Source of the DNA: Candidatus Doudnabacteria bacterium
GTDB taxonomy: Bacteria > Patescibacteriota > Doudnabacteria > UBA920 > O2-02-FULL-48-8
NCBI GenBank assembly: GCA_037200925.1
Contig: JBBCGO010000001.1
Span: 317,248 to 381,247, forward strand
DNA length: 64,000 bases
Direction: 5' to 3'
Under the pieces are notes generated by a model. The model was not told where the DNA came from. It did no database searches and saw only the letters and a program-made list of their open reading frames with translations. Below are positions 1,782 to 37,813 of this stretch, piece by piece. Position numbers and translations under genes: made by a program. Positions within the stretch are counted from its first letter, which is position 1; the number at the start of each line of letters is the position of its first letter.

Positions 1782-2965
1782 TGAGTTTGCGATCCCGTCA
1801 CGATCACCCACCCGTTCGGCACGTCGCAGGGTGTGGGGAATTGTTTGACCTCTCCGGTCGCAGGATTCTTCGCAGTTGTAATTACTTGGATGCAGGCAAT
1901 CGGCTCATTGCTGATCGGCGATGTAAATCCAAAAGTGGAAAGGATCTGGCTTATTAGATCTTTTGTTCCTCCGGGTGCGCCAATCTCTAAATACTTATTT
2001 TGAACGGATATAGTGGCGGTTGGTATTCCCAAAACACTATCGTAGATCTTCGCACCGAGGCCATTGATCGCAGATTCAGCAACGTTGCTTTTCGACGCTA
2101 CCAATAATTGTTCTTCTGTGGTGAAAGCGGCTTGATTTGGAAAAATTTTCACATACAAAACATTGTTAGCAGTGGTTTGCGGAGGAGACTGCTGCTGTTT
2201 TATTGAGTTAAAGTTGATCCAGACAATCCCGGCTTTGTCGGTAGTTACGTCTCCTTCGCTCCAATCAACTGGGTATTTAAAGGCAATGCCGTATTTTGTA
2301 TTCGTATAAGTTTTCCAGGTGGAAGTATCTGCTGCCGCGCTTGGTTCAGTAAACTTGACATTAGAAACGATTTGGTCAAAATCTATATCAAACTTCGTAG
2401 GAGGTTTGGGGTAATTGATGTGAAATAGATCCGTTTTATTCAGCTGAACAATGACATGGAATTCGGATTGACCGGTTGAAGAATAATCCAATCGGATCGC
2501 CGGTTTTCCGCCGACAGTTATGTCTGTTTTTGGCAGTTGTTCAGGCGTAAGCTTAAAGGCAGCAAGCTGCTCTGTGTACCATTCATCCAACGGAAGGTTT
2601 TTTGGATTTCCGTTCGGCTCAACCTCAAACGTCACCAGCGAATTTGCCGCGGTTTGCGACGGTTCCAGGATGGAAATACTGTAAAACGTTCCTGTGCCCT
2701 CCAGCCCTACAAGCAATGTCGGCGGATATTTAAAACTAAACCCGTACTGAGAATTCGTATACGTTTTCCAGTCCGCTGTTGGGTCTTTGTGAACGACTGG
2801 TTGAGCCGGCGACGGGACGGAGATTGTTGATTGCCAATACCAGATGCCGGCTACAGCACATGCGCCTAAGACCAAAAGCGAAGCTATCACAGCAATGAAC
2901 TTTGGCGTGAAAGTTTTTTTAGGCGGCGAAATGTCCTGCTGTTGTTGTATTGGGGTTATTTCCAT
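1778..2965 (-). CDS. membrane-anchored secreted protein, YTN-motif family (two motif copies)
   Basis: N-terminal TM helix followed by YWQ, then DWKTYTNSQYGFSFKYP and a second TWKTYTNTKYGIAFKYPVDW. Paralog of 2985-4061, 6419-7402, 31110-31697 and 36021-36587. Confidence 0.6.
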   Translation of the reverse strand: MEITPIQQQQDISPPKKTFTPKFIAVIASLLVLGACAVAGIWYWQSTISVPSPAQPVVHKDPTADWKTYTNSQYGFSFKYPPTLLVGLEGTGTFYSISILEPSQTAANSLVTFEVEPNGNPKNLPLDEWYTEQLAAFKLTPEQLPKTDITVGGKPAIRLDYSSTGQSEFHVIVQLNKTDLFHINYPKPPTKFDIDFDQIVSNVKFTEPSAAADTSTWKTYTNTKYGIAFKYPVDWSEGDVTTDKAGIVWINFNSIKQQQSPPQTTANNVLYVKIFPNQAAFTTEEQLLVASKSNVAESAINGLGAKIYDSVLGIPTATISVQNKYLEIGAPGGTKDLISQILSTFGFTSPISNEPIACIQVITTAKNPATGEVKQFPTPCDVPNGWVIVTGSQTQ

Positions 2966-4065: not shown

Positions 4066-5128
<1,063 letters not shown>

Positions 5129-5263
5129 TTATTTCAATAATTGCAGCAGAAAAGCGACGATGAACAGCGCCCAAACGAGAAAAATGATAAATTCAATATT
5201 ATCTTCAAACAGAAAATAGCGATGAAGATGCTGGTCCAATGTTTTTCTTGTTTTTTTTGCCAT
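5129..5263 (-). CDS. hypothetical small membrane protein (44 aa)
   Basis: MAKKTRKTLDQHLHRYFLFEDNIEFIIFLVWALFIVAFLLQLLK, between gap and fba; not in the ORF track (below its size cutoff). Confidence 0.25.
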   Translation of the reverse strand: MAKKTRKTLDQHLHRYFLFEDNIEFIIFLVWALFIVAFLLQLLK

Positions 5264-5322
5264 ACGTTTTGATTAATTTTTTTAATTATTTTATTTAAGA
5301 TTTATTCCTCAAAGCAGTGATA

Positions 5323-6189
5323 TTACTGTATTCCGTTAAAAAGTTTCAACCTCCCTTCTACCACTTTTTCTATTGCATCTACGGCAGGTTGTAAAATTTT
5401 ATATGGAGCGATTTCGTCAGGATGTTCGGCTAAAGATTTTTTAAGCGCCTCGTCGTAGGCCACACGTATTTCAGTATTAATGTGGATAATTGAAATGCCC
5501 GCCTTGATCGCATTTGTAAAATCCACATCACGCAATCCTGAACCACCGTGCAATACGAGAGGCACGCCCGTTGCTTTTTTTATTTCTCCCACACGCTCTT
5601 CATTTATATGAGGTTTGCCGCTTTTTATGAGGCCATGGATGCTGCCGACAGATGGTGCGAGCATATCTGTGCCGGTCATTTCCACAAATTTCTTAGCATC
5701 TTCGGGTTTCGTCAGGATCCCGGCGCCTTCCGGTATGGTATCTTTTATATTTGACCCTGAACCGATAAACCCCAGCTCTGCTTCTACTAAAATATCTCTG
5801 CCGGTTTCCTGAATCACACTCTTGGCATATTCTACGGTTTGTTTTGTGATCTTTACATTTTCTTCGAAACTCAAATTTGCCAGATCTATGATCACGGCAT
5901 CGAAGCCCGCGTCAATCGCACTCTTTGCACGCTCAAAAGAATAATGATGATCAGCATTCAGGAAAATAGGGTAATTATCTTTCGCTCTAATCTGATTGAT
6001 CATCCCAACTGCTTCGTTCTTGCCGACAAAATCTTCCTCGCCTTCGGAGAGCCCGATAATGACGGGCACTGCCAGTTTTTTTGCAGCATTATAGATCCCG
6101 TGGAATCCTTCCAAATTTGAAATATTAAAATGTCCGATAGCAACGCCTTTTTCCTCGGCTTCTTTCACATATTCTCGCAATGTTTTCAT
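5323..6189 (-). CDS. fba: class II fructose-bisphosphate aldolase
   Basis: GHFNISNLEGF, PVIIGLSEGE, LNADHH and VLHGGSG motifs of class II FBA/tagatose-bisphosphate aldolases. Confidence 0.8.
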   Translation of the reverse strand: MKTLREYVKEAEEKGVAIGHFNISNLEGFHGIYNAAKKLAVPVIIGLSEGEEDFVGKNEAVGMINQIRAKDNYPIFLNADHHYSFERAKSAIDAGFDAVIIDLANLSFEENVKITKQTVEYAKSVIQETGRDILVEAELGFIGSGSNIKDTIPEGAGILTKPEDAKKFVEMTGTDMLAPSVGSIHGLIKSGKPHINEERVGEIKKATGVPLVLHGGSGLRDVDFTNAIKAGISIIHINTEIRVAYDEALKKSLAEHPDEIAPYKILQPAVDAIEKVVEGRLKLFNGIQ

Positions 6190-26289: not shown

Positions 26290-26335
26290 GGTCTAAATTA
26301 CTGCGACTAGCATAATTTAGACCGTCTTTTTTTTG
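26290..26335 (+). terminator. strong hairpin plus T9 (plus-strand orientation) inside the 142-bp rpsH-rplF spacer
   Basis: GGTCTAAATTA-ctgcgactagca-TAATTTAGACC followed by TTTTTTTTT. A second weaker hairpin (GTTGC...GCAAC) lies at 26255-26285. Confidence 0.4.
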
Positions 26336-30308: not shown

Positions 30309-30632
30309 TCAGCTTTTGCAGCTTCCAATGACCGTTTTTTCCGCTTCCTGGGCCGCAATCGCCTCTTCTTTGGCCATGCGTCCGCCGTGTCTGACGAATT
30401 TGCGGCTTGGTGAAAACTCGCCTAATTTGTGCCCGACCATGTTTTCCGAACAATGCACGGTTATAAAATTCTTGCCGTTGTGAACAAGGAAAGTCAGGCC
30501 TACCATTTCGGGAAAAATAGTGGAGTCGCGCGACCAGGTCTTGATCTCAACTTTCTGCCCAGGCCGAACCTTCTGGATCTTCTCCAGAAGTTTAGGATCT
30601 ATAAATGGTCCTTTTTTCAGTGATCGTGACAT
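30309..30632 (-). CDS. rpsS: 30S ribosomal protein S19
   Basis: [12 protein letters not shown]...[18 protein letters not shown]. Confidence 0.9.
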
Positions 30633-30635
30633 ATA

Positions 30636-31091
30636 TTAATTAGTAGATTTATTTGGATCAGGACCGCAAATGATATGTCCCGGGATACTCTGGGTTGTTC
30701 CGATCGGCACTTGTCCGGCAGGACATGGCCCGGGTGACGGGATCGGCGCTGGCGCTTCCGCACCAACTGGTGTTTGATCAGCAAGAGTAATTGTGGAAAC
30801 AGCAATGGTTCCTTCTCCTTGCTGACAAGTGCTCATTTCTTGCAAAGTACCTTTAATATCCACCGCATCACCTGTTTTGAATCCGGCAAGATTGCCTGTC
30901 AAAGTGTATTGTTTGCCGTCATCGGTTTGGAACAATTGGCATTCAGCGCCACCTGCTATTAACTTCCCGCTGAAAGAAGTTCCATTGCCTGGCTGATTTC
31001 CAGGCCCAACAGGTGCCTGTTTGTTGCAAGCTGCGGCTATTAAAATAATAGCCGGGATCAGGATAATTAATTTTTTCAGCGATCGTGACAT
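30636..31091 (-). CDS. lipoprotein inserted in the S10 operon; N-terminus MSRSLKK duplicated from rpsS
   Basis: MSRSLKKLIILIPAIILIAAAC (lipobox LIAAAC). Gene flanked by 24-bp direct repeats 30612-30635 and 31071-31094. Confidence 0.65.
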   Translation of the reverse strand: MSRSLKKLIILIPAIILIAAACNKQAPVGPGNQPGNGTSFSGKLIAGGAECQLFQTDDGKQYTLTGNLAGFKTGDAVDIKGTLQEMSTCQQGEGTIAVSTITLADQTPVGAEAPAPIPSPGPCPAGQVPIGTTQSIPGHIICGPDPNKSTN

Positions 31092-31109
31092 GTAATGCTT
31101 AATTTGGAT

Positions 31110-31697
31110 TTAATTGTTCTTGTCAGGAGGACATGGCTTGCCCATGTTCGGATCACAAGGATTTAGGCCATTAAGGTTGTTCTGATTTGCTTGAGATTGA
31201 GTAAATTTGAAAGTGGAAATTATCTGTTTGAATTCAGCGATCTTATCATTATTTTTCCCGTCAAAAGTTATAAACCTTACTTCTATGGCAGCGCCGGTGC
31301 TGGACTGGAAAGTAACCTCATATGAGATCCCTCCTGTTGGAGAGGCTGTCACTACCGGGGATTCATAAGCCGTAATTCCATTTACTTTGGTCTTATTTGG
31401 TATGTTTGCGAAATTCTTGTTCAAAAGGAAATCCATCGTGGAATAAGCTGAAGAAAAAGCCGGAGCCTGGGTACTGCCAAACATGCTGACCACATTCTTT
31501 GAAACGCTGTAATTGGAAGGGTACATTATCTGAAATCCATATTGAGCGTTCGTATACGTCTGCCAATCAGCCATTGAAACCGTTGAAGGAGCCGGTTGTT
31601 GTGTTTGCTGATTTTGGGCAGGTTGAACAGCCGCTTGTTGGTTGCAGGCCGCGGCCACTAATATTATTGAAGCTGTAACTGCCAGGATCTTTTTCAT
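31110..31697 (-). CDS. lipoprotein, YTN-motif family
   Basis: MKKILAVTASIILVAAAC lipobox, then DWQTYTNAQYGFQIMYPSNY. Confidence 0.65.
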   Translation of the reverse strand: MKKILAVTASIILVAAACNQQAAVQPAQNQQTQQPAPSTVSMADWQTYTNAQYGFQIMYPSNYSVSKNVVSMFGSTQAPAFSSAYSTMDFLLNKNFANIPNKTKVNGITAYESPVVTASPTGGISYEVTFQSSTGAAIEVRFITFDGKNNDKIAEFKQIISTFKFTQSQANQNNLNGLNPCDPNMGKPCPPDKNN

Positions 31698-31698
31698 A

Positions 31699-32340
31699 TT
31701 ATTTTTGTTTAATTTCTAATGTTTTAATTATATTGGTCATATCAATAAGCGCGGTGTTCAAACTTGCGCTGCCCTTCACGGGCAAACTGTTCACGTCCTT
31801 TGAATTATAAGCCATTGTCACTACCAAACCGGGAGGCTGATCATCTGTGTAATAATTGAAGTAGCCATTTCTGCTGTCCGTCAGATAAGAAAAATACCAA
31901 ACAGTAGAACCATTGGTCGGAACATTACAGTAATCTTTTTTGTCAGCAGCGGCAACATACAGATCCGCTCGGGAATAGTCATCAAATGCCGGATTTTTTT
32001 CTGAAGTCCCGCAGGGAGGGCTTGGCTGTTCGGTCACAACAGCATCAGCGCTTGGCGCCCCCATGGCAATTTCCGCAAAACGACCTCCCTCAACACCGCT
32101 GGCTTGTGAAGCCTGAGTGTTAACATAAAGAATATAGTTTCCCTTGGTAATATTGACCGCTGCGGAATTTGAACCGGCCTGAGCGGCTGTCCATCCGGCA
32201 GGGATCGTGATTTTCATGAATTGATTTTCGTAAACCTGGCTCTGTGGCGGCGGAGGTGGAGTAGGCTGAACAGCCGCTTGTTTGTTGCAAGCCGCGGCAA
32301 GTAGCAAAATTCCGATTGTAGCTACAAAAATCTTTTTCAT
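31699..32340 (-). CDS. lipoprotein, hypothetical
   Basis: MKKIFVATIGILLLAAACNKQAAVQP lipobox. The leader is near-identical to those of neighbours 31110-31697 and 36021-36587. Confidence 0.6.
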   Translation of the reverse strand: MKKIFVATIGILLLAAACNKQAAVQPTPPPPPQSQVYENQFMKITIPAGWTAAQAGSNSAAVNITKGNYILYVNTQASQASGVEGGRFAEIAMGAPSADAVVTEQPSPPCGTSEKNPAFDDYSRADLYVAAADKKDYCNVPTNGSTVWYFSYLTDSRNGYFNYYTDDQPPGLVVTMAYNSKDVNSLPVKGSASLNTALIDMTNIIKTLEIKQK

Positions 32341-32344
32341 AAAA

Positions 32345-33175
32345 TTATTTTTCCCGTCTCTTAACTATAAACTTATTAGATTTCTTTTTATCTCGTGTCT
32401 TTACGCCCAAAGCGTGTTTGCCCCACGGGGTTTTCGGGTATTTCAAACCGATAGGATTATGCCCTTCGCCCCCGCCGTGCGGGTGGTCTATCGGGTTCAT
32501 GGCCTTGCCGCGGACCGAAGGCCGGACTCCCATGTGGCGGACTCTCCCTGCCTTGCCGATCCGCACATACATCCAGTCAGTGTTGGAAACCTGTCCGATC
32601 GTGGCGTACGATTTGACCGGTACTTTGCGAAGCTCGCTGGAAGGCAGTTTCAGAGTCGTGTAATCCGGCTCCTGGGCAGCGACGATTGCATATGTTCCGG
32701 CAGATCTGGCGAGCAAGCCTCCCTGCCCGCCCAAAATTTCCACATTATGGACATTAGTGCCGAGGGGGATGTGTTTGAGCATCATGCGGTTTCCCGGCTT
32801 GATCTCCGCGCGTTCGGAAGTCACCAGAACTTCGCCCATCTTTACTCCGTCAGGTGCGAGAATGTACCGTCTTTCGCCGTCGCGGTAAGCCAAAAGGGAA
32901 ATGAACGCCGAACGGCCCGGATCGTATTCCAAAGTTTTGACGATTGCCGGAATATCCATCTTGTCGCGCTTAAAATCTATCAGGCGGTTTATCTGCTTAT
33001 GCCCGCCGCCCTGGTGGCGGATAGTGATCTTACCCTGGTTGTTGCGACCCGCGGTGCGGGCGGCTGATCGCATCAAAGATTTCACGGGTTTGGAATTTTT
33101 GGTCAAAACCGAATAATCCGTCACGGAATGGATGCGGCGGCCGGGTGAAGTTGGTTTGTAAATCTTGATAGCCAT
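32345..33175 (-). CDS. rplB: 50S ribosomal protein L2
   Basis: Canonical L2 (GRNNQGKITIRHQGGGHK...). Confidence 0.9.
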   Translation of the reverse strand: MAIKIYKPTSPGRRIHSVTDYSVLTKNSKPVKSLMRSAARTAGRNNQGKITIRHQGGGHKQINRLIDFKRDKMDIPAIVKTLEYDPGRSAFISLLAYRDGERRYILAPDGVKMGEVLVTSERAEIKPGNRMMLKHIPLGTNVHNVEILGGQGGLLARSAGTYAIVAAQEPDYTTLKLPSSELRKVPVKSYATIGQVSNTDWMYVRIGKAGRVRHMGVRPSVRGKAMNPIDHPHGGGEGHNPIGLKYPKTPWGKHALGVKTRDKKKSNKFIVKRREK

Positions 33176-33176
33176 A

Positions 33177-33599
33177 TTATACTCCTTCGGATAATCCTGC
33201 TATCCGTTCTCCGCTCTTTAAAGTAACTATTGCTTTCTTCCAATCCTGGGTTCTTCCCACTGACTTGCCTTGGCGGCGGTTCTTGCCGGAAACATTTATC
33301 ATATTGACCGCAGAGACATGCACGTCATATACAGCCTCAACCGCTTTTTTGACCTCTATCTTATTGGCGGTCTTGGCTACTTTGAAAACATATCGGCCGA
33401 TGGAGGAAAACTGGTTGGTTTTTTCCGACAAATGATAACGATGCAGAATATGATGCGCACGACCCGTGTTTTCTTTCAAAACAGTCGGCGTTGAATCGGT
33501 CTTTCCTGCAACAGGTTCTTTGACCAAATCCAAAACATTGTCCTCTTTCGGGGCTTTCTTGCTGCCTTGTTTGCTTTTAAATCTGTCTAAGAGCGCCAT
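33177..33599 (-). CDS. rplW: 50S ribosomal protein L23 (with N-terminal extension)
   Basis: L23 core in the canonical position. Confidence 0.8.
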   Translation of the reverse strand: MALLDRFKSKQGSKKAPKEDNVLDLVKEPVAGKTDSTPTVLKENTGRAHHILHRYHLSEKTNQFSSIGRYVFKVAKTANKIEVKKAVEAVYDVHVSAVNMINVSGKNRRQGKSVGRTQDWKKAIVTLKSGERIAGLSEGV

Positions 33600-33603
33600 A
33601 TCA

Positions 33604-34245
33604 TTAAACTTTTAAATACGTTTTCTCAATAATTGGCAACGCATCTTTCAAAACCAATACATCATGCTTCAAAAGATCCAAAACATTCAGCCGATCGGCG
33701 TATAGGACTTTCACATTTTCCAGATTTCGCGCAGCCCGTTCCAGGTCTTTATTATGCGTGGCCAGAACCAGCAAATATTTCTTGCCGAACTCGGCTTTGC
33801 CGGCAACAACCGCCAGTTTTGCCGCCAGTTCTTTCGATTTGGCGGTATTATCAAAACTTTCCACGATAACTAACTTATGCTCATTGACCTTGTCGGTCAA
33901 AACGCTGAACATTGCTTTTCTTTGGGCTGACTTGTTCATTTTCAAGGACCAATTGCGGGCGCTGGTCGGGCCAAAAGTGACTCCGCCGTGCCGCCAAATA
34001 GGCGAACGGACCGAGCCGGCTCTGGCGCGTCCGGTGCCTTTTTGCTTCCACGGCTTTTTGCCGGAACCGGCTACCTCGCCGCGGTTTTTCGTATGGGCGA
34101 TCGACCGGCGGGCGTTATTTCTCTGCGTTCGCACAGCCGAGTGGACCAGATTACCGTCAATTTTTTCAATGCCAAAGATCTTCGGATTCAGGTCCAGTTC
34201 CGTTACTTTTTCGCCTGTTTGGTTGTAGACTGATGTTTTTGCCAT
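33604..34245 (-). CDS. rplD: 50S ribosomal protein L4
   Basis: Canonical L4. Confidence 0.85.
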   Translation of the reverse strand: MAKTSVYNQTGEKVTELDLNPKIFGIEKIDGNLVHSAVRTQRNNARRSIAHTKNRGEVAGSGKKPWKQKGTGRARAGSVRSPIWRHGGVTFGPTSARNWSLKMNKSAQRKAMFSVLTDKVNEHKLVIVESFDNTAKSKELAAKLAVVAGKAEFGKKYLLVLATHNKDLERAARNLENVKVLYADRLNVLDLLKHDVLVLKDALPIIEKTYLKV

Positions 34246-34246
34246 A

Positions 34247-34840
34247 TTAGTTCCTAATCAAATTAGGGCAATCAGTAAACACACCGTCTATCTGAAATTC
34301 TTTAAGCTTTTCAAATCTTTCCCGGTCATTTACTGTCCAGATGAAGATCTTTTTATTCAGCTTTTTCAGATACTCGATCGTGATCCTGTTGCAAAAAAAC
34401 GATTTTGGATGAATGGAATAAAGCTGCAGAGTGCGGTCCAGCTTCGGAATGAGCGGAAGAAGAAAAAAATTCTCTCCCAGTATCAGCCCGAGTTTGATAT
34501 TTTCATCCAAACTTCTGATCTTCTTCAGTATCGACGGATACTTGGAGGAAACCAGAACTTCAGAGGAAAAATTCTTAAGCAATTCTACGAGCTGGGTTTC
34601 AAAACCCGTCTCTTTAACTTCCAGGTTCAGCGCAACCTTCGCGACCCGAAGCAGTTCTTCCAAGGTTGCCGGCTGGTTGTGTTTGTTCAAAAAATTATGG
34701 CACAGAACGATCTGGCCGTCGGAATTGAGGCGCAAGTCGGTTTCAAGCATGTCCACTCCCAGCTCCTGCGCTTTTTGAAAAGAACGGATAGTATTCTCAG
34801 GTTCCAGGCTTGGCGCTCCTCTGTGTCCTATTATTAGCAT
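34247..34840 (-). CDS. glycerophosphodiester phosphodiesterase (GDPD family), inserted between rplC and rplD
   Basis: MLIIGHRGAPSLEPENTIRSFQKAQELGVDMLETDLRLNSDGQIVLCHN - the GDPD catalytic motifs HRG...ENT...E.D. Confidence 0.75.
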   Translation of the reverse strand: MLIIGHRGAPSLEPENTIRSFQKAQELGVDMLETDLRLNSDGQIVLCHNFLNKHNQPATLEELLRVAKVALNLEVKETGFETQLVELLKNFSSEVLVSSKYPSILKKIRSLDENIKLGLILGENFFLLPLIPKLDRTLQLYSIHPKSFFCNRITIEYLKKLNKKIFIWTVNDRERFEKLKEFQIDGVFTDCPNLIRN

Positions 34841-34898: not shown

Positions 34899-35504
34899 CT
34901 AACTCTGCGTCTGGATCCTGACTATACCGCCGTTTGCGCCCGGAACCGCTCCTTTCACTGCTATCAGATTTCTCTTGAGGTCCACATCCACGACTTCCAG
35001 ATTGATGACTGTCCGCACGCCGCCCATGCGTCCGGCCATATGCAAACCTTTTCTGACATGCTGGGGAAACCTGCCGCCGATGGCGCCCACGGCTCTCGGA
35101 TGGTCATGGCCGTGGGAAGCCGGCGCGCCTTTGAACCTGTAACGCTTGATCGGTCCTGCAAATCCCCGGCCTTTCATTTCTGCCGTAACTTTCACCTTGT
35201 CGCCGACGGCAAACGCGTCAACTTTTATCTCCTGGCCTTTTTCAAAACTGTCTTTTTCGGAAATTCTGAATTCCGCCAAAGTTTTAAATGCGCCCGCCTC
35301 TTTGCCGTGCCCTAGTTCTGCTTTGTTTGCGTTCTTCTTCTTGCCAAACCCAACCTGCACGGCCTGGTATTTGTCTTTATCCAAGGTTTTGACCTGCACG
35401 ACTTTGACCGGTCCTGCCAAAAGAATGGTTACGGGCACGACCTTGCCGTCTTTCGTGAACATCTGCGACATATTCAGTTTTTCAGCGAGAATGAATTTGG
35501 ACAT
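34899..35504 (-). CDS. rplC: 50S ribosomal protein L3
   Basis: Canonical L3. Confidence 0.9.
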   Translation of the reverse strand: MSKFILAEKLNMSQMFTKDGKVVPVTILLAGPVKVVQVKTLDKDKYQAVQVGFGKKKNANKAELGHGKEAGAFKTLAEFRISEKDSFEKGQEIKVDAFAVGDKVKVTAEMKGRGFAGPIKRYRFKGAPASHGHDHPRAVGAIGGRFPQHVRKGLHMAGRMGGVRTVINLEVVDVDLKRNLIAVKGAVPGANGGIVRIQTQS

Positions 35505-35618: not shown

Positions 35619-35945
35619 TTACATTTTGATCTCTATATCCACTCCTGCCGGCAAATTCAGATTACTTAATGCATCAATTGTTTTCGGCGTAGGAGAAGCA
35701 ATATCTATCAGGCGCTTATGAATGCGCATCTCAAACTGCTCGCGGGCATTCTTATGCACGAAGGTCGAGCGGTTCACGGTATACTTTGTCTTTTCAGTCG
35801 GAAGCGGAACAGGCCCGATGACCGCAGCGCCTGTTCGCTTGGCAGTTTCTACGATCTGCTTCGCGGACTGGTCTATCAGCTTATGGTCATAAGCCCGGAT
35901 CTTGATCCTTATTCTGCCTTTATTCTCGTCAGTATCTTGCGCCAT
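35619..35945 (-). CDS. rpsJ: 30S ribosomal protein S10
   Basis: Canonical S10. Confidence 0.9.
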
Positions 35946-36020: not shown

Positions 36021-36587
36021 TTATTTGGTAAATTTAACACTGGCCAGAATATAGTTTAATATTTGATCGTTCGTGGAATTTTTAAATCTGTTATCATAAG
36101 AAATCGCCAAGTAATTGTTAGCTGAAAAAGGAATCGAGATAAGTTGTTCCTTCGCGTCCGAAATACTGGTCGCTTGCTTGCCGCCGACGGTCAATTGCGT
36201 AGGGTTCCCTAATTTGCTTAAATTTCCCGTACCATTACCAACACTAAGCGAAAATATACAAACCGCCGAGGCCAAATTCTGCGGGTCAAAACAAGATTTT
36301 GATTCACTGACCAGCTTTAATCCCGAAACAAAAAGTGGGGATGGCTGCATAATTTCCATTTGTAAGCTTGTCGGATACTTGAACTCAAATCCATATTGCG
36401 CATTGGTATAAGTTTTCCAACCTGCTGTCGGGTCAGTTGTGGGGGCAGGGGCTGGTGCAGGAGTTTGAGTTACCGGCTGCGGGGCGGGAGCGGGCTGAAC
36501 AGCCGCCTGATTGTTGCAAGCCGCGGCGAGGAGCAAAACTGCTGATGTAATTACTAGAATCTTCTTCATAACTTCCAACCTAACCAA
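36021..36587 (-). CDS. lipoprotein, YTN-motif family, inserted between tuf and rpsJ
   Basis: Likely start MKKILVITSAVLLLAAAC at 36569, then GWKTYTNAQYGFEFKYPTSL. Confidence 0.65.
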   Translation of the reverse strand: MVRLEVMKKILVITSAVLLLAAACNNQAAVQPAPAPQPVTQTPAPAPAPTTDPTAGWKTYTNAQYGFEFKYPTSLQMEIMQPSPLFVSGLKLVSESKSCFDPQNLASAVCIFSLSVGNGTGNLSKLGNPTQLTVGGKQATSISDAKEQLISIPFSANNYLAISYDNRFKNSTNDQILNYILASVKFTK

Positions 36588-36627
36588 AGGACTACTTGGG
36601 GTTTCCTCAAGTAGTCCTTTATTTTTT
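36587..36627. terminator. 12-bp perfect hairpin downstream of tuf (bidirectional terminator-like)
   Basis: AAGGACTACTTG-gggtttcct-CAAGTAGTCCTT flanked by A/T runs. Confidence 0.45.
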
Positions 36628-37813
36628 ACTTTGTGATCTTGAGCACTACGCCGGCTCCTACGGTGTGTCCGCCTTCGCGGATGGCGAAACGCATCTTCTC
36701 TTCCATGGCCACGGGTGTGATCAATTTAATTTTTAAGGTAACGGTGTCGCCCGGCATGACCATTTCCTGCCCTGCTGGCAGTTCAACTTCTCCGGTCACG
36801 TCAGTGGTTCGGATATAAAATTGGGGTTTGTAGCCTTTGAAGAAAGGAGTATGACGGCCGCCTTCTTCCTTGGTCAGAATGTAGACTTCAGCGTCAAATT
36901 CAGTGTGAGGGGTCACAGAACCCGGCTTGGCCAAAACTTGTCCGCGTTCAACATCTTCTTTCTTGGTGCCGCGGAGCAAAACCCCGGCATTGTCGCCGGC
37001 CCGGCCTTCTTCCAATTGCTTGTTGAACATTTCAATACCGGTCACAACCGTCTTTGTGGTCGGGCGGATGCCGACGATCTCAATTTCTTCGCCGATCTTG
37101 ACTATGCCGCGTTCAATTCTTCCTGTGACCACAGTGCCGCGTCCTTCAATTGAAAAAATATCTTCTATCGGCATCAGATATGGCTTGTCGGTTTCTCGCA
37201 CCGGTTCAGGGATATAAGTGTCCAATGCTTCTACCAATTTCAGAATTGAAGGCTCGCCGATCTCTGACTGGTCGCCTTCCAACGCTTTGAGCGCGGAACC
37301 GCGGATGATAGGAGTATCTTTTCCCGGAAAGCCGTATTTGGTCAAAAGGTCGCGAATTTCTTCTTCCACCAGATCAAGCAATTCCTTGTCATCCACCATA
37401 TCCACTTTGTTCATATAAACCACGATGTAAGGAACGCCAACCTGCTTGGCAAGCAAAATATGTTCGCGGGTCTGAGGCATGGGACCGTCAGTTGCTGACA
37501 CGACCAAGATCGCGCCGTCCATCTGGGCTGCACCCGTGATCATATTCTTGATGTAATCTGCGTGTCCCGGACAGTCCACGTGCGCATAGTGGCGCTTGTC
37601 TGATTCGTATTCAACGTGCGTGGTGTTGATGGTTATACCGCGCGCCTTTTCTTCCGGTGATTTATCAATATCATCATACGCGCGGGCCTTAGCCTTGCCG
37701 GTTTTGGCCAGCACGTTGGTGATTGCCGCAGTCAATGTAGTCTTGCCATGGTCAACGTGGCCAATGGTGCCGATGTTGATATGCGGTTTGGAACGGTCAA
37801 ATTTCTCTGCCAT
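36626..37813 (-). CDS. tuf: elongation factor Tu
   Basis: [13 protein letters not shown]...DCPGHADY... Confidence 0.95.

Follow-up and report, generated by a model that had tools for sequence, protein, structure and literature searches.

A copy of the rpsS start opens a lipoprotein gene in the S10 operon of Candidatus Doudnabacteria

The 64-kb stretch of Candidatus Doudnabacteria DNA analysed here (the window) carries the str/S10/spc ribosomal-protein cluster of this member of the candidate phyla radiation (CPR, Patescibacteria) on its minus strand. Three lipoprotein genes, named lipo1, lipo2 and lipo3 from the rplB side, were found in a variable slot between rplB (uL2) and rpsS (uS19), and rplV, rpsC and further genes came after rpsS. 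The gene lipo3, next to rpsS, opened with a second copy of the rpsS start, and the two copies formed a 24-base-pair (bp) direct repeat around it. This repeat is best read as a genuine scar left by recombination where lipoprotein genes turn over fast, not as a new kind of genetic system. The features are listed in Table 1, with positions counted over the whole window.

Table 1. Genes, repeat copies and sequence modules at the locus (window positions unless a relative's locus is named; nt, nucleotides; aa, amino acids)
Feature	Position	Strand	Remarks
tuf	36626-37813	-	
fourth lipoprotein gene, between tuf and rpsJ	36021-36572	-	same leader family, MKKILVITSAVLLLAAACNNQAAVQP..., lipo2-like body ending ..SVKFTK
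rpsJ	35619-35945	-	
rplC	34899-35504	-	
glycerophosphodiester phosphodiesterase (GDPD) gene, in the rplC-rplD gap	34247-34840	-	PF03009, E 1e-23
rplD	33604-34245	-	
rplW	33177-33599	-	
rplB (uL2)	32345..33175	-	left edge of the variable slot
lipo1	31699..32340	-	213-aa lipoprotein, MKK start, no Pfam family
lipo1 signal-peptide/lipobox DNA	32263..32310	-	same 48-nt family as in lipo3
lipo2	31110..31697	-	195-aa lipoprotein, MKK start, weak PsbP_2-like body ending ..STFKFT, added Cys-loop tail NPCDPNMGKPCPPDKNN
lipo2 signal-peptide/lipobox DNA	31620..31667	-	same 48-nt family as in lipo3
weak gapped upstream extension of copy B	31099..31128	-	end of lipo2 tail (..CPPDKNN*) plus spacer
spacer, lipo2 stop to lipo3 ATG	31092..31109	-	18 nt
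repeat copy B	31071..31094	-	TTTTTTCAGCGATCGTGACATGTA; TAC + lipo3 codons 1-7 (ATG TCA CGA TCG CTG AAA AAA), then TTA ATT
lipo3	30636..31091	-	151-aa DUF5818 lipoprotein, MSRSLKK-LIILIPAIILIAAAC
lipo3 signal-peptide/lipobox DNA	31002..31049	-	..GCCGCAGCTTGCAACAAACAG..; one of three direct copies
weak gapped upstream extension of copy A	30636..30663	-	end of lipo3 tail (..CGPDPNKSTN*)
repeat copy A	30612..30635	-	TTTTTTCAGTGATCGTGACATATA; TAT + rpsS codons 1-7 (ATG TCA CGA TCA CTG AAA AAA), then GGA CCA
rpsS (uS19)	30309..30632	-	PF00203, E 9e-35; ends ~30285 in the same-species contig L001
Cys-loop modules	31120-31160, 30640-30725; L009:5185-5230; L092:1650-1690, 2110-2210		

A preliminary description had reported the two 24-mers as 22/24 identical, 459 bp apart and bracketing the lipoprotein open reading frame (ORF), and direct reading of the sequence showed all three statements to be exact. 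Copy A abutted the TAA stop of lipo3 (ORF 30636-31091), so the 459-bp unit, measured from start to start, consisted of the lipo3 ORF and 3 nt. Copy B covered codons 1-7 of lipo3, and both proteins began with MSRSLKK when these codons were read in rpsS and lipo3, again as described. Each copy ran 3 nt beyond its ATG, where the same description had placed the end at the ATG itself. The two mismatches between the copies were the base at -1 (T in copy A and C in copy B) and the synonymous Ser4 codon (TCA and TCG), and the coding part was identical at 20/21 nt, synonymous positions included. A search of the 64 kb at up to 3 mismatches found just these two sites (0.00 expected from 100 dinucleotide-preserving shuffles), and a degenerate pattern for all MSRSLKK-coding sequences returned the same two only; the idea that other family members might carry the same 24-mer found no further copy. 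Ungapped extension of the repeat pair gave 31 nt at 84% identity. A gapped extension upstream was weak and covered 28-30 nt, with a score of 21-23 against a shuffle mean of 13 (standard deviation 2.6), and was reached in 25-57 of 5000 shuffles. The DNA downstream of the two copies showed no similarity, the observed score being reached in 241 of 1000 shuffles.

An assembly artefact, which had been raised as a possible source of the repeat, was excluded because the repeat was identical in independent assemblies and sequencing runs. The Logan contig L002 (SRR10968259, 1335 nt) was 100% identical over window positions 30612-31946, the Logan contig L001 (SRR28211699) was 99.98% identical over 12.4 kb, and the exact lipo3 protein was also present in the NCBI assembly GCA_015689235.1. 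The sole differences from L001 were two A-run indels outside the repeat, with one extra A in each of the runs at 30335-30340 and 26327-26334. The first of these shifted the C-terminal frame of rpsS, which was 107 aa long in the window and 115 aa in L001 and in the relative L003, and is probably a homopolymer error in the window assembly. Contig L002 terminated precisely at the final base of copy A (..CACTGAAAAAA); exact matches between the two copies are too short to break an assembly graph at k=31, so this end may be a coincidence.

The lipo3 protein was composed of the leader MSRSLKK, the h-region LIILIPAIILIAA, the lipobox Cys22, a DUF5818 core (residues ~41-103) and the Cys-loop tail PCPAGQVPIGTTQSIPGHIICGPDPNKSTN. 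Inspection for a positive n-region, a hydrophobic h-region and a lipobox [LVI][ASTVI][GAS]C within ~15-35 residues identified MSRSLKK (+3), LIILIPAIILI and I-A-A-C with Cys22, as predicted for a bacterial lipoprotein processed by signal peptidase II (SPase II). The lipobox AAAC-N(K/Q)Q was common to 20 family members, and a paralogue gave a weak LPAM_1 match. No in-frame ATG, GTG or TTG was found in lipo3 between the captured ATG and the lipobox cysteine, so that lipo3 depends on the captured ATG and the Lys-Lys pair. The protein matched DUF5818 (PF19135) over residues 41-103 with 35.1 bits against a cutoff of 27, and this family had 515 representative homologues at E<=1e-3; among the best-scoring 150 of these 515, lipo3 alone started with MSRSLKK. 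The uS19 domain (PF00203) spans ~81 residues after the N-terminus of S19, with which lipo3 shared residues 1-7 alone, and Pfam found just DUF5818 in lipo3. The AlphaFold model was of moderate quality and showed a five-strand beta core with a predicted local distance difference test (pLDDT) score of 64.7 overall and ~80 in the core. Comparison with the PDB gave weak matches only, resembling the oligonucleotide/oligosaccharide-binding (OB) fold (E ~6e-3), and the modelled fold is uninformative on the function of DUF5818 beyond "small beta-barrel".

To place lipo3 in its lineage, the slot was compared over ~50 Doudnabacteria loci collected by scans with L2 and the lipoproteins. The closest relatives, which came from lipoprotein and L2 protein searches, were L003 (92% L2 identity to the window), L092 (91%), L009 (88%) and L173 (88%); scans of GTDB representatives and JGI metagenomes gave nothing above 86% L2 identity. 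The preliminary description had proposed looking for an uninterrupted rplB-rpsS junction, and such a junction with a gap of 3-11 nt was present in many loci (for example L013, L016-L018, L023, L024, L026-L030, L097 and L099-L105), as well as in L173, with its 88% L2 identity. The slot held one lipoprotein gene in L009/L010, L011, L014, L015, L019, L020, L031, L038, L092, L093, L174 and L177, two in L003 and L091, and three in the window species. At least five unrelated body types occurred in it: DUF5818, the weak PsbP_2-like type (..STFKFTK), the lipo1 family, a 176-aa type and the L174 type. The leaders of these lipoproteins were nearly one and the same at the DNA level (MKK-x11-AAAC-N(K/Q)Q-AAVQP), and the three 48-nt signal-peptide/lipobox copies of lipo1, lipo2 and lipo3 had 73-77% identity despite unrelated bodies. 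The Cys-loop modules CDPxMGxxCPP and PCPxGxVPIGxTxxIPGxxICGP served as C-terminal tails, internal linkers or N-terminal segments in different lipoproteins, and the resemblance of their DNA from genome to genome suggests that modules have been shuffled. An orthologue of lipo1 sat in the same slot of L019. The slot of L012 (JBDTSL010000001.1, 5829-5895) was short and non-coding, 68 nt left over from the start of a lipo1-type gene (ATGAAAAAGATTTTTGTCGCTACAATTGGAATTTTG...). This spacer kept the first ~40 nt of the gene (MKKIFVATIGILLV..), followed by a stop; it is a deletion scar and shows the loss of a cassette in the L012 lineage. The slot is therefore best described as an old, fast-turning-over array of lipoprotein cassettes, and it is demonstrably recombinogenic. 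In the window itself, lipo2 and lipo3 shared one reading frame (31092-31112), with a single TAA and six sense codons in between. A lipo2-lipo3 fusion would result if the lipo2 stop were read through, and fused modules occurred in relatives, for example in P0009 and P0011.

Within this array the MSRSLKK leader was exceptional. Among 20 lipoproteins of the signal-peptide family in Doudnabacteria loci, 17 started with MKK, two with MSRSLKK (the window and L174) and one with MSSIKK (L091). The DUF5818 orthologues directly upstream of rpsS in L003, L009 and L177 started with ATG AAA AAG, and the distance from the Lys-Lys pair to the lipobox cysteine was exactly 15 codons in these orthologues and in lipo3. 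The lipo3 leader thus equalled an MKK leader with 12 additional nt, TCA CGA TCG CTG, 11 of which matched rpsS codons 2-5. The S19 N-terminus was near-constant among the relatives examined, with few conservative variants; since it was kept in nearly all of them and MKK is usual in the lipoproteins, the copying went from rpsS to the lipoprotein. A neighbour-joining tree of L2 and S19 nested the window among MKK lineages, (L011,(L093,(L012,(L009,(window,(L092,L003)))))). From these comparisons, MSRSLKK is judged to be the derived state, and the first 21 nt of lipo3 to be a copy of the rpsS start rather than a coincidence. The copied segment was also unusually conserved: over 41 distinct Doudnabacteria rpsS starts, codons 4, 6 and 7 were nearly invariant (TCA in 36/41, AAA in 40/41 and AAA in 38/41), whereas later Ser and Lys codons varied freely, the later Lys codons at ~50:50. 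These almost invariant synonymous sites indicate a constraint at the nucleotide level on the rpsS 5' end.

A second rpsS 5' copy was present in the window species only among 172 loci, and L174, added later, was the sole further case. In L174 (positions 4833-5437; JGI 3300037810, Ga0376277_0005917), a 192-aa lipoprotein of another body type followed rplB with TAAT-ATG TCA CGA TCA CTA AAA AAA (MSRSLKKIYILIPAILLLAAAC), and the real rpsS, 584 bp downstream, started with ATG AGT AGA TCA CTA AAA AAA. Because the lipoprotein had TCA CGA where its own rpsS had AGT AGA, the copy was not templated by the rpsS that now lies next to it. The start MSSIKK was found in L091 (OBEQ012392405.1, 2525-3637), where two tandem lipo2-type genes had near-identical signal-peptide DNA after the Lys-Lys pair. 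The first of them started with ATG AAG AAA (MKK) and the second, beside rpsS, with ATG TCA AGT ATT AAA AAA, and a GC-rich hairpin-like element lay between the two. This MSSIKK start shared just ATGTCA and AAAAAA with the rpsS start, and could go back to an earlier capture of it that has since decayed or have nothing to do with it.

The preliminary description had taken the repeat as the footprint of a gene insertion. The copy of the rpsS start is real and a recombination joint is supported, but the entry of lipoprotein genes into the operon is not what it records: slot cassettes occurred in more than 15 relatives lacking a second rpsS 5' copy, and since these relatives hold slot lipoproteins, DUF5818 included, with MKK starts and no repeat, the repeat reflects a later rearrangement in an already variable slot. 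The origin we favour, with a confidence slightly better than even, is a joint of illegitimate, microhomology-mediated recombination within the hypervariable rplB-rpsS lipoprotein slot. Before the event, one molecule would have read lipo2, Cys-loop tail, stop, spacer and the genuine rpsS start ATG TCA CGA TCA CTG AAA AAA GGA. The other, whether from a sister chromosome, from a co-occurring strain or by uptake of external DNA, would have carried ATG AAA AAR, followed by the h-region, lipobox, DUF5818 domain and tail, and then TAA TAT and ATG TCA CGA... of its rpsS. A crossover in the A-run, between rpsS codons 6-7 (AAA AAA; Lys6-Lys7) and lipoprotein codons 2-3 (AAA AAR; Lys2-Lys3), would fuse the resident rpsS 5' end to the DUF5818 cassette, and a second crossover could be ordinary homologous recombination in the flanking ribosomal-protein genes. 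The lipoprotein would thereby take over the old rpsS ATG and n-region (MSRSL+KK) and still have a valid lipoprotein signal peptide, with an intact rpsS 3 nt past the lipo3 stop and the 24-bp direct repeat bracketing the 459-bp unit. The crossover point and the identity of the partner molecule are our reconstruction from the sequence. Through the same repeat lipo3 could also be lost precisely, and a lipo2-rpsS junction as in L009 would then return.

The flanks of the two copies carried much of the evidence for this joint. The 150 nt upstream of copy B gave a collinear alignment with the DNA that precedes the true rpsS of L009 (score 53, reached in 0/1000 shuffles). The DNA of the lipo2 tail (CDPNMGKPCPPDKNN in the window and CDPRMGRLCPPNRNP in L009), the stop and the first spacer bases TAAAT all aligned with the tail that precedes rpsS there, at equal distance from the ATG. 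A joint formed by recombination at rpsS codon 7 predicts such a match. Upstream of copy A, the DNA likewise aligned with the rpsS-upstream region of L092 (score 53, 0/1000 shuffles), and since both flanks matched rpsS-upstream flanks in relatives, both look like genuine junctions of tail, stop and rpsS. Additionally, identity was uneven, with 92% in the 24-mer and ~65% with indels immediately upstream, which fits two diverged haplotypes that have a strongly conserved rpsS 5' end in common. Sequence of the rpsS type gave way to sequence of the lipoprotein type within AAA AAA / AAA AAR, as at a microhomology joint, and this point coincided with the only sequence common to both partners, ATG...AAAAAR. 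Conserved ribosomal-protein genes flanked both ends and could have served as the extended homologous anchor, but their per-gene identities gave no left/right discordance of the kind that an incoming donor tract would leave.

Several observations weigh against this origin. No intermediate haplotype was found, neither a lipo2-tail-rpsS arrangement lacking lipo3 nor an MKK-lipo3 in the window species, and in the search for strain-level intermediates the 90% clusters of L2, lipo1, L22 and lipo3 were singletons. Per-gene nucleotide and protein identities revealed no phylogenetic discordance between the left and right flanks, L003 being closest on both sides. The bodies flanking copy B were unrelated (lipo2, weak PsbP_2-like, and DUF5818). 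The flank similarity to L009 could stem from a window-like ancestor by deletion between the repeats, a route that would leave the first formation of the repeat unexplained. The context that precedes the lipoprotein start in L174 (rplB-TAAT-ATG) was the same for MKK lipoproteins and rpsS and so did not discriminate between the models. Two other routes were rejected. Both flanks ranked the same relatives, and there was no sign of an imported foreign tract. A one-step tandem duplication or unequal crossing-over, in line with the earlier suggestion that the gene was created by duplication, was unsupported given the unrelated bodies beside copy B and the dissimilar DNA downstream of the copies; lipo2 and lipo3 were not homologous over their whole length and shared only the signal-peptide DNA, the extreme tail with the spacer, and the 24-mer.

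The best-surviving alternative, which we regard as unlikely but worth serious attention, is a short templated patch. The 12 nt TCA CGA TCA CTG would have been copied from the rpsS start 459 bp downstream into an existing MKK-DUF5818 gene upstream of rpsS, either by template switching or by short-patch gene conversion across the quasi-repeats TAYATG...AAAAAR, with no gene insertion or duplication. The net difference to the orthologous MKK starts was exactly 12 nt with the 15-codon spacing unchanged, and the closest relative, L003, has a DUF5818 gene with the same loop3 tail directly upstream of rpsS. The absence of detectable flank discordance agrees with such a patch, as does a 24-mer far more similar than its surroundings, which is expected of a young local conversion. 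However, a patch leaves unexplained both the in-register match of the copy B flank to the true-rpsS flank of L009 and the weak gapped similarity upstream of the two copies; its microhomology arms would be just 5-6 nt long, and L174 offers no local template. Four points, namely the flanks, the uneven identity, the crossover site and L174, speak for a joint at rpsS codon 7 rather than for a patch of just 12 nt.

The L174 leader also raised the question of whether the chimeric start is older than the window species. The window and L174 leaders share the rare (I/V)PAI motif, and therefore the chimeric leader may have arisen once and spread by exchange. In this improbable but coherent scenario, a single older fusion of the rpsS 5' end to a (I/V)PAI-type signal peptide in a Doudnabacteria ancestor was later passed between lineages and onto different mature domains as cassettes were exchanged by homology, and the window repeat is no local scar. 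In agreement with it, L174, at 84% L2 identity, carries MSRSLKK-IYILIPAILLLAAAC on an unrelated body, and mature domains and Cys-loop modules have clearly been exchanged between genes. The (I/V)PAI h-region occurred in 3/18 aligned leaders, and MSRSLKK in 2/3 of these against 0/15 of the others (p ~0.02), the third being the MKK leader of L177. The leader was nevertheless missing in the closer relatives L003, L092, L009, L012 and L173, and the upstream flank of copy B points to a local joint. Moreover, in both lineages 19-20 of the 21 nt still matched the rpsS start typical of the clade, while the adjacent h-region DNA was only 61% identical, a contrast that would require selection or recurrent conversion.

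The MSRSLKK leader was near-identical in the window and L174 despite diverged adjacent DNA, and with 21 nt conserved in two diverged lineages some selection may be at work. It is conceivable, though doubtful, that the rpsS 5' end (ATG + TCA CGA TCA CTN + A-run) is a recurrent docking point for exchangeable surface-lipoprotein cassettes and that selection keeps MSRSLKK. The leader would then tie the lipoprotein to the chain of translational coupling in the operon with the highest expression, and the slot would be a dedicated expression platform for the fast-evolving surface proteins of an episymbiotic CPR lineage. The claim that lipo3 captured the S19 initiation signals held for the ATG, the seven codons and at most 3 nt upstream. 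It failed for the rest: no Shine-Dalgarno-like motif was found upstream of copy A or B, the 18-nt lipo2-lipo3 spacer included, and none was shared. In ViennaRNA folds from -40 to +60, the bases around the start had a mean unpaired probability of 0.45 in lipo3 with MSRSLKK, compared with 0.68 when an MKK start was assumed and 0.70 in rpsS. Better translation initiation by the captured start was thus unsupported, with a predicted accessibility no better than that of MKK. The genes in the slot were spaced by 1-18 nt. Terminator-like sites were not above shuffle expectation and none lay on the minus (coding) strand inside the slot; the promoter-like matches upstream of lipo1 and lipo2 were AT-rich consensus matches only. 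The close spacing, the absence of a coding-strand terminator and of a Shine-Dalgarno motif suggest that the lipoprotein genes are co-transcribed and translationally coupled with the operon. The capture itself, which added +1 charge and +4 residues to the n-region, looks like a tolerated by-product of recombination; adaptation was not indicated.

An origin as a mobile-element footprint appeared very improbable. In such a case, the 459-bp cassette would owe its repeat to a transposase (as a target-site duplication) or to a recombinase with an attachment (att) site at the rpsS start. Integrative elements typically come with direct repeats in which the end of a conserved gene is duplicated and the gene itself stays intact, and the repeat brackets exactly one gene. 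Against this, the 459-bp unit encodes only the lipoprotein, has no terminal inverted repeats at its boundaries and contains no recombinase, the whole window not having been searched for recombinases. A 24-bp duplication with 2 mismatches is atypical for a target-site duplication, other slot cassettes occur in relatives with no rpsS duplication, and neither a tRNA nor an Rfam family was found in 26-40 kb. The unit resembled neither a transposon or insertion-sequence target-site duplication nor an att site. A chance resemblance of the n-region or a mis-joined or collapsed assembly, to which Lys/Arg-rich signal-peptide n-regions and the homopolymer-length differences of the window assembly from another same-species assembly might seem to lend colour, deserves next to no credence and is effectively refuted by zero expected matches in shuffles, the 20/21 nt identity including synonymous positions, and the identical sequence in independent assemblies from different runs.

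Non-ribosomal genes were also found elsewhere in the operon. The fourth lipoprotein, between tuf and rpsJ, had nothing at the matching place in the relatives L003, L010 and L174. The GDPD gene in the rplC-rplD gap, shared with L009/L010, L174 and L175 and absent from the closest relative L003, is a second non-ribosomal passenger of the S10 operon. No paper was found on Doudnabacteria lipoproteins, on rplB-rpsS in Patescibacteria or on DUF5818. The repeat provides a clean, datable example of a new gene start, in which the start codon and n-region came from an essential ribosomal gene that was left undamaged. The wider context is probably more interesting, namely a hypervariable lipoprotein array in an otherwise ultra-conserved S10 operon, extending here to the tuf-rpsJ gap. 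Synteny of rplB and rpsS should not be assumed when ribosomal-protein blocks are used for CPR binning or phylogenomics, and the passenger lipoproteins are good candidates for highly expressed, fast-diversifying surface proteins in host attachment.

The class of mechanism, with microhomology joints and chimeric 5' ends, is already known; the variable lipoprotein array with shared leader DNA inside the S10 operon of a CPR phylum and the in-frame capture of the start of a ribosomal gene appear to be new. Homology-facilitated illegitimate recombination with microhomology joints is known from bacteria with natural transformation, for example Acinetobacter and Streptococcus pneumoniae. As in those systems, one junction here would lie in a very short shared sequence (ATG...AAAAAR, with an A-run of 5-6 nt), the other side would be anchored in long homology (the ribosomal-protein genes), and foreign or paralogous DNA would land beside a conserved gene. 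Here, however, the joint would lie in frame inside two coding 5' ends and yield a chimeric signal peptide and a 24-bp duplication, and the mechanism is read from sequence only. Islands and prophages that integrate at the end of a conserved gene carry a replacement end, as at tRNA and tmRNA 3' ends or with SCCmec at rlmH. The direct repeat of the window similarly equals the end of a housekeeping gene, brackets an insert and leaves that gene (rpsS) intact; in contrast to such islands, the lipo3 unit has no integrase, the repeat lies at the 5' end, where it is translated within the inserted gene, and other cassettes at the site lack it. In Mycoplasma vsp/vlp-type families and Borrelia lipoprotein paralogues, conserved 5' leader DNA is joined to variable mature regions. 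Adjacent slot lipoproteins likewise share signal-peptide/lipobox DNA with unrelated mature domains, and gene content turns over fast between close relatives, with shuffled modules. No phase-variation device (invertible promoter or homopolymer switch) was found in the slot array; unlike those families, the Doudnabacteria array is inside the S10 operon, and one member took its start from a ribosomal gene. Ribosomal operons also have ancient, conserved non-ribosomal passengers, such as secY, adk, map and infA of the spc/alpha region. The genes described here are packed among ribosomal-protein genes with spacers of 1-18 nt in the same manner, but these passengers, the lipoproteins and the rplC-rplD GDPD gene, vary between species of one candidate phylum.

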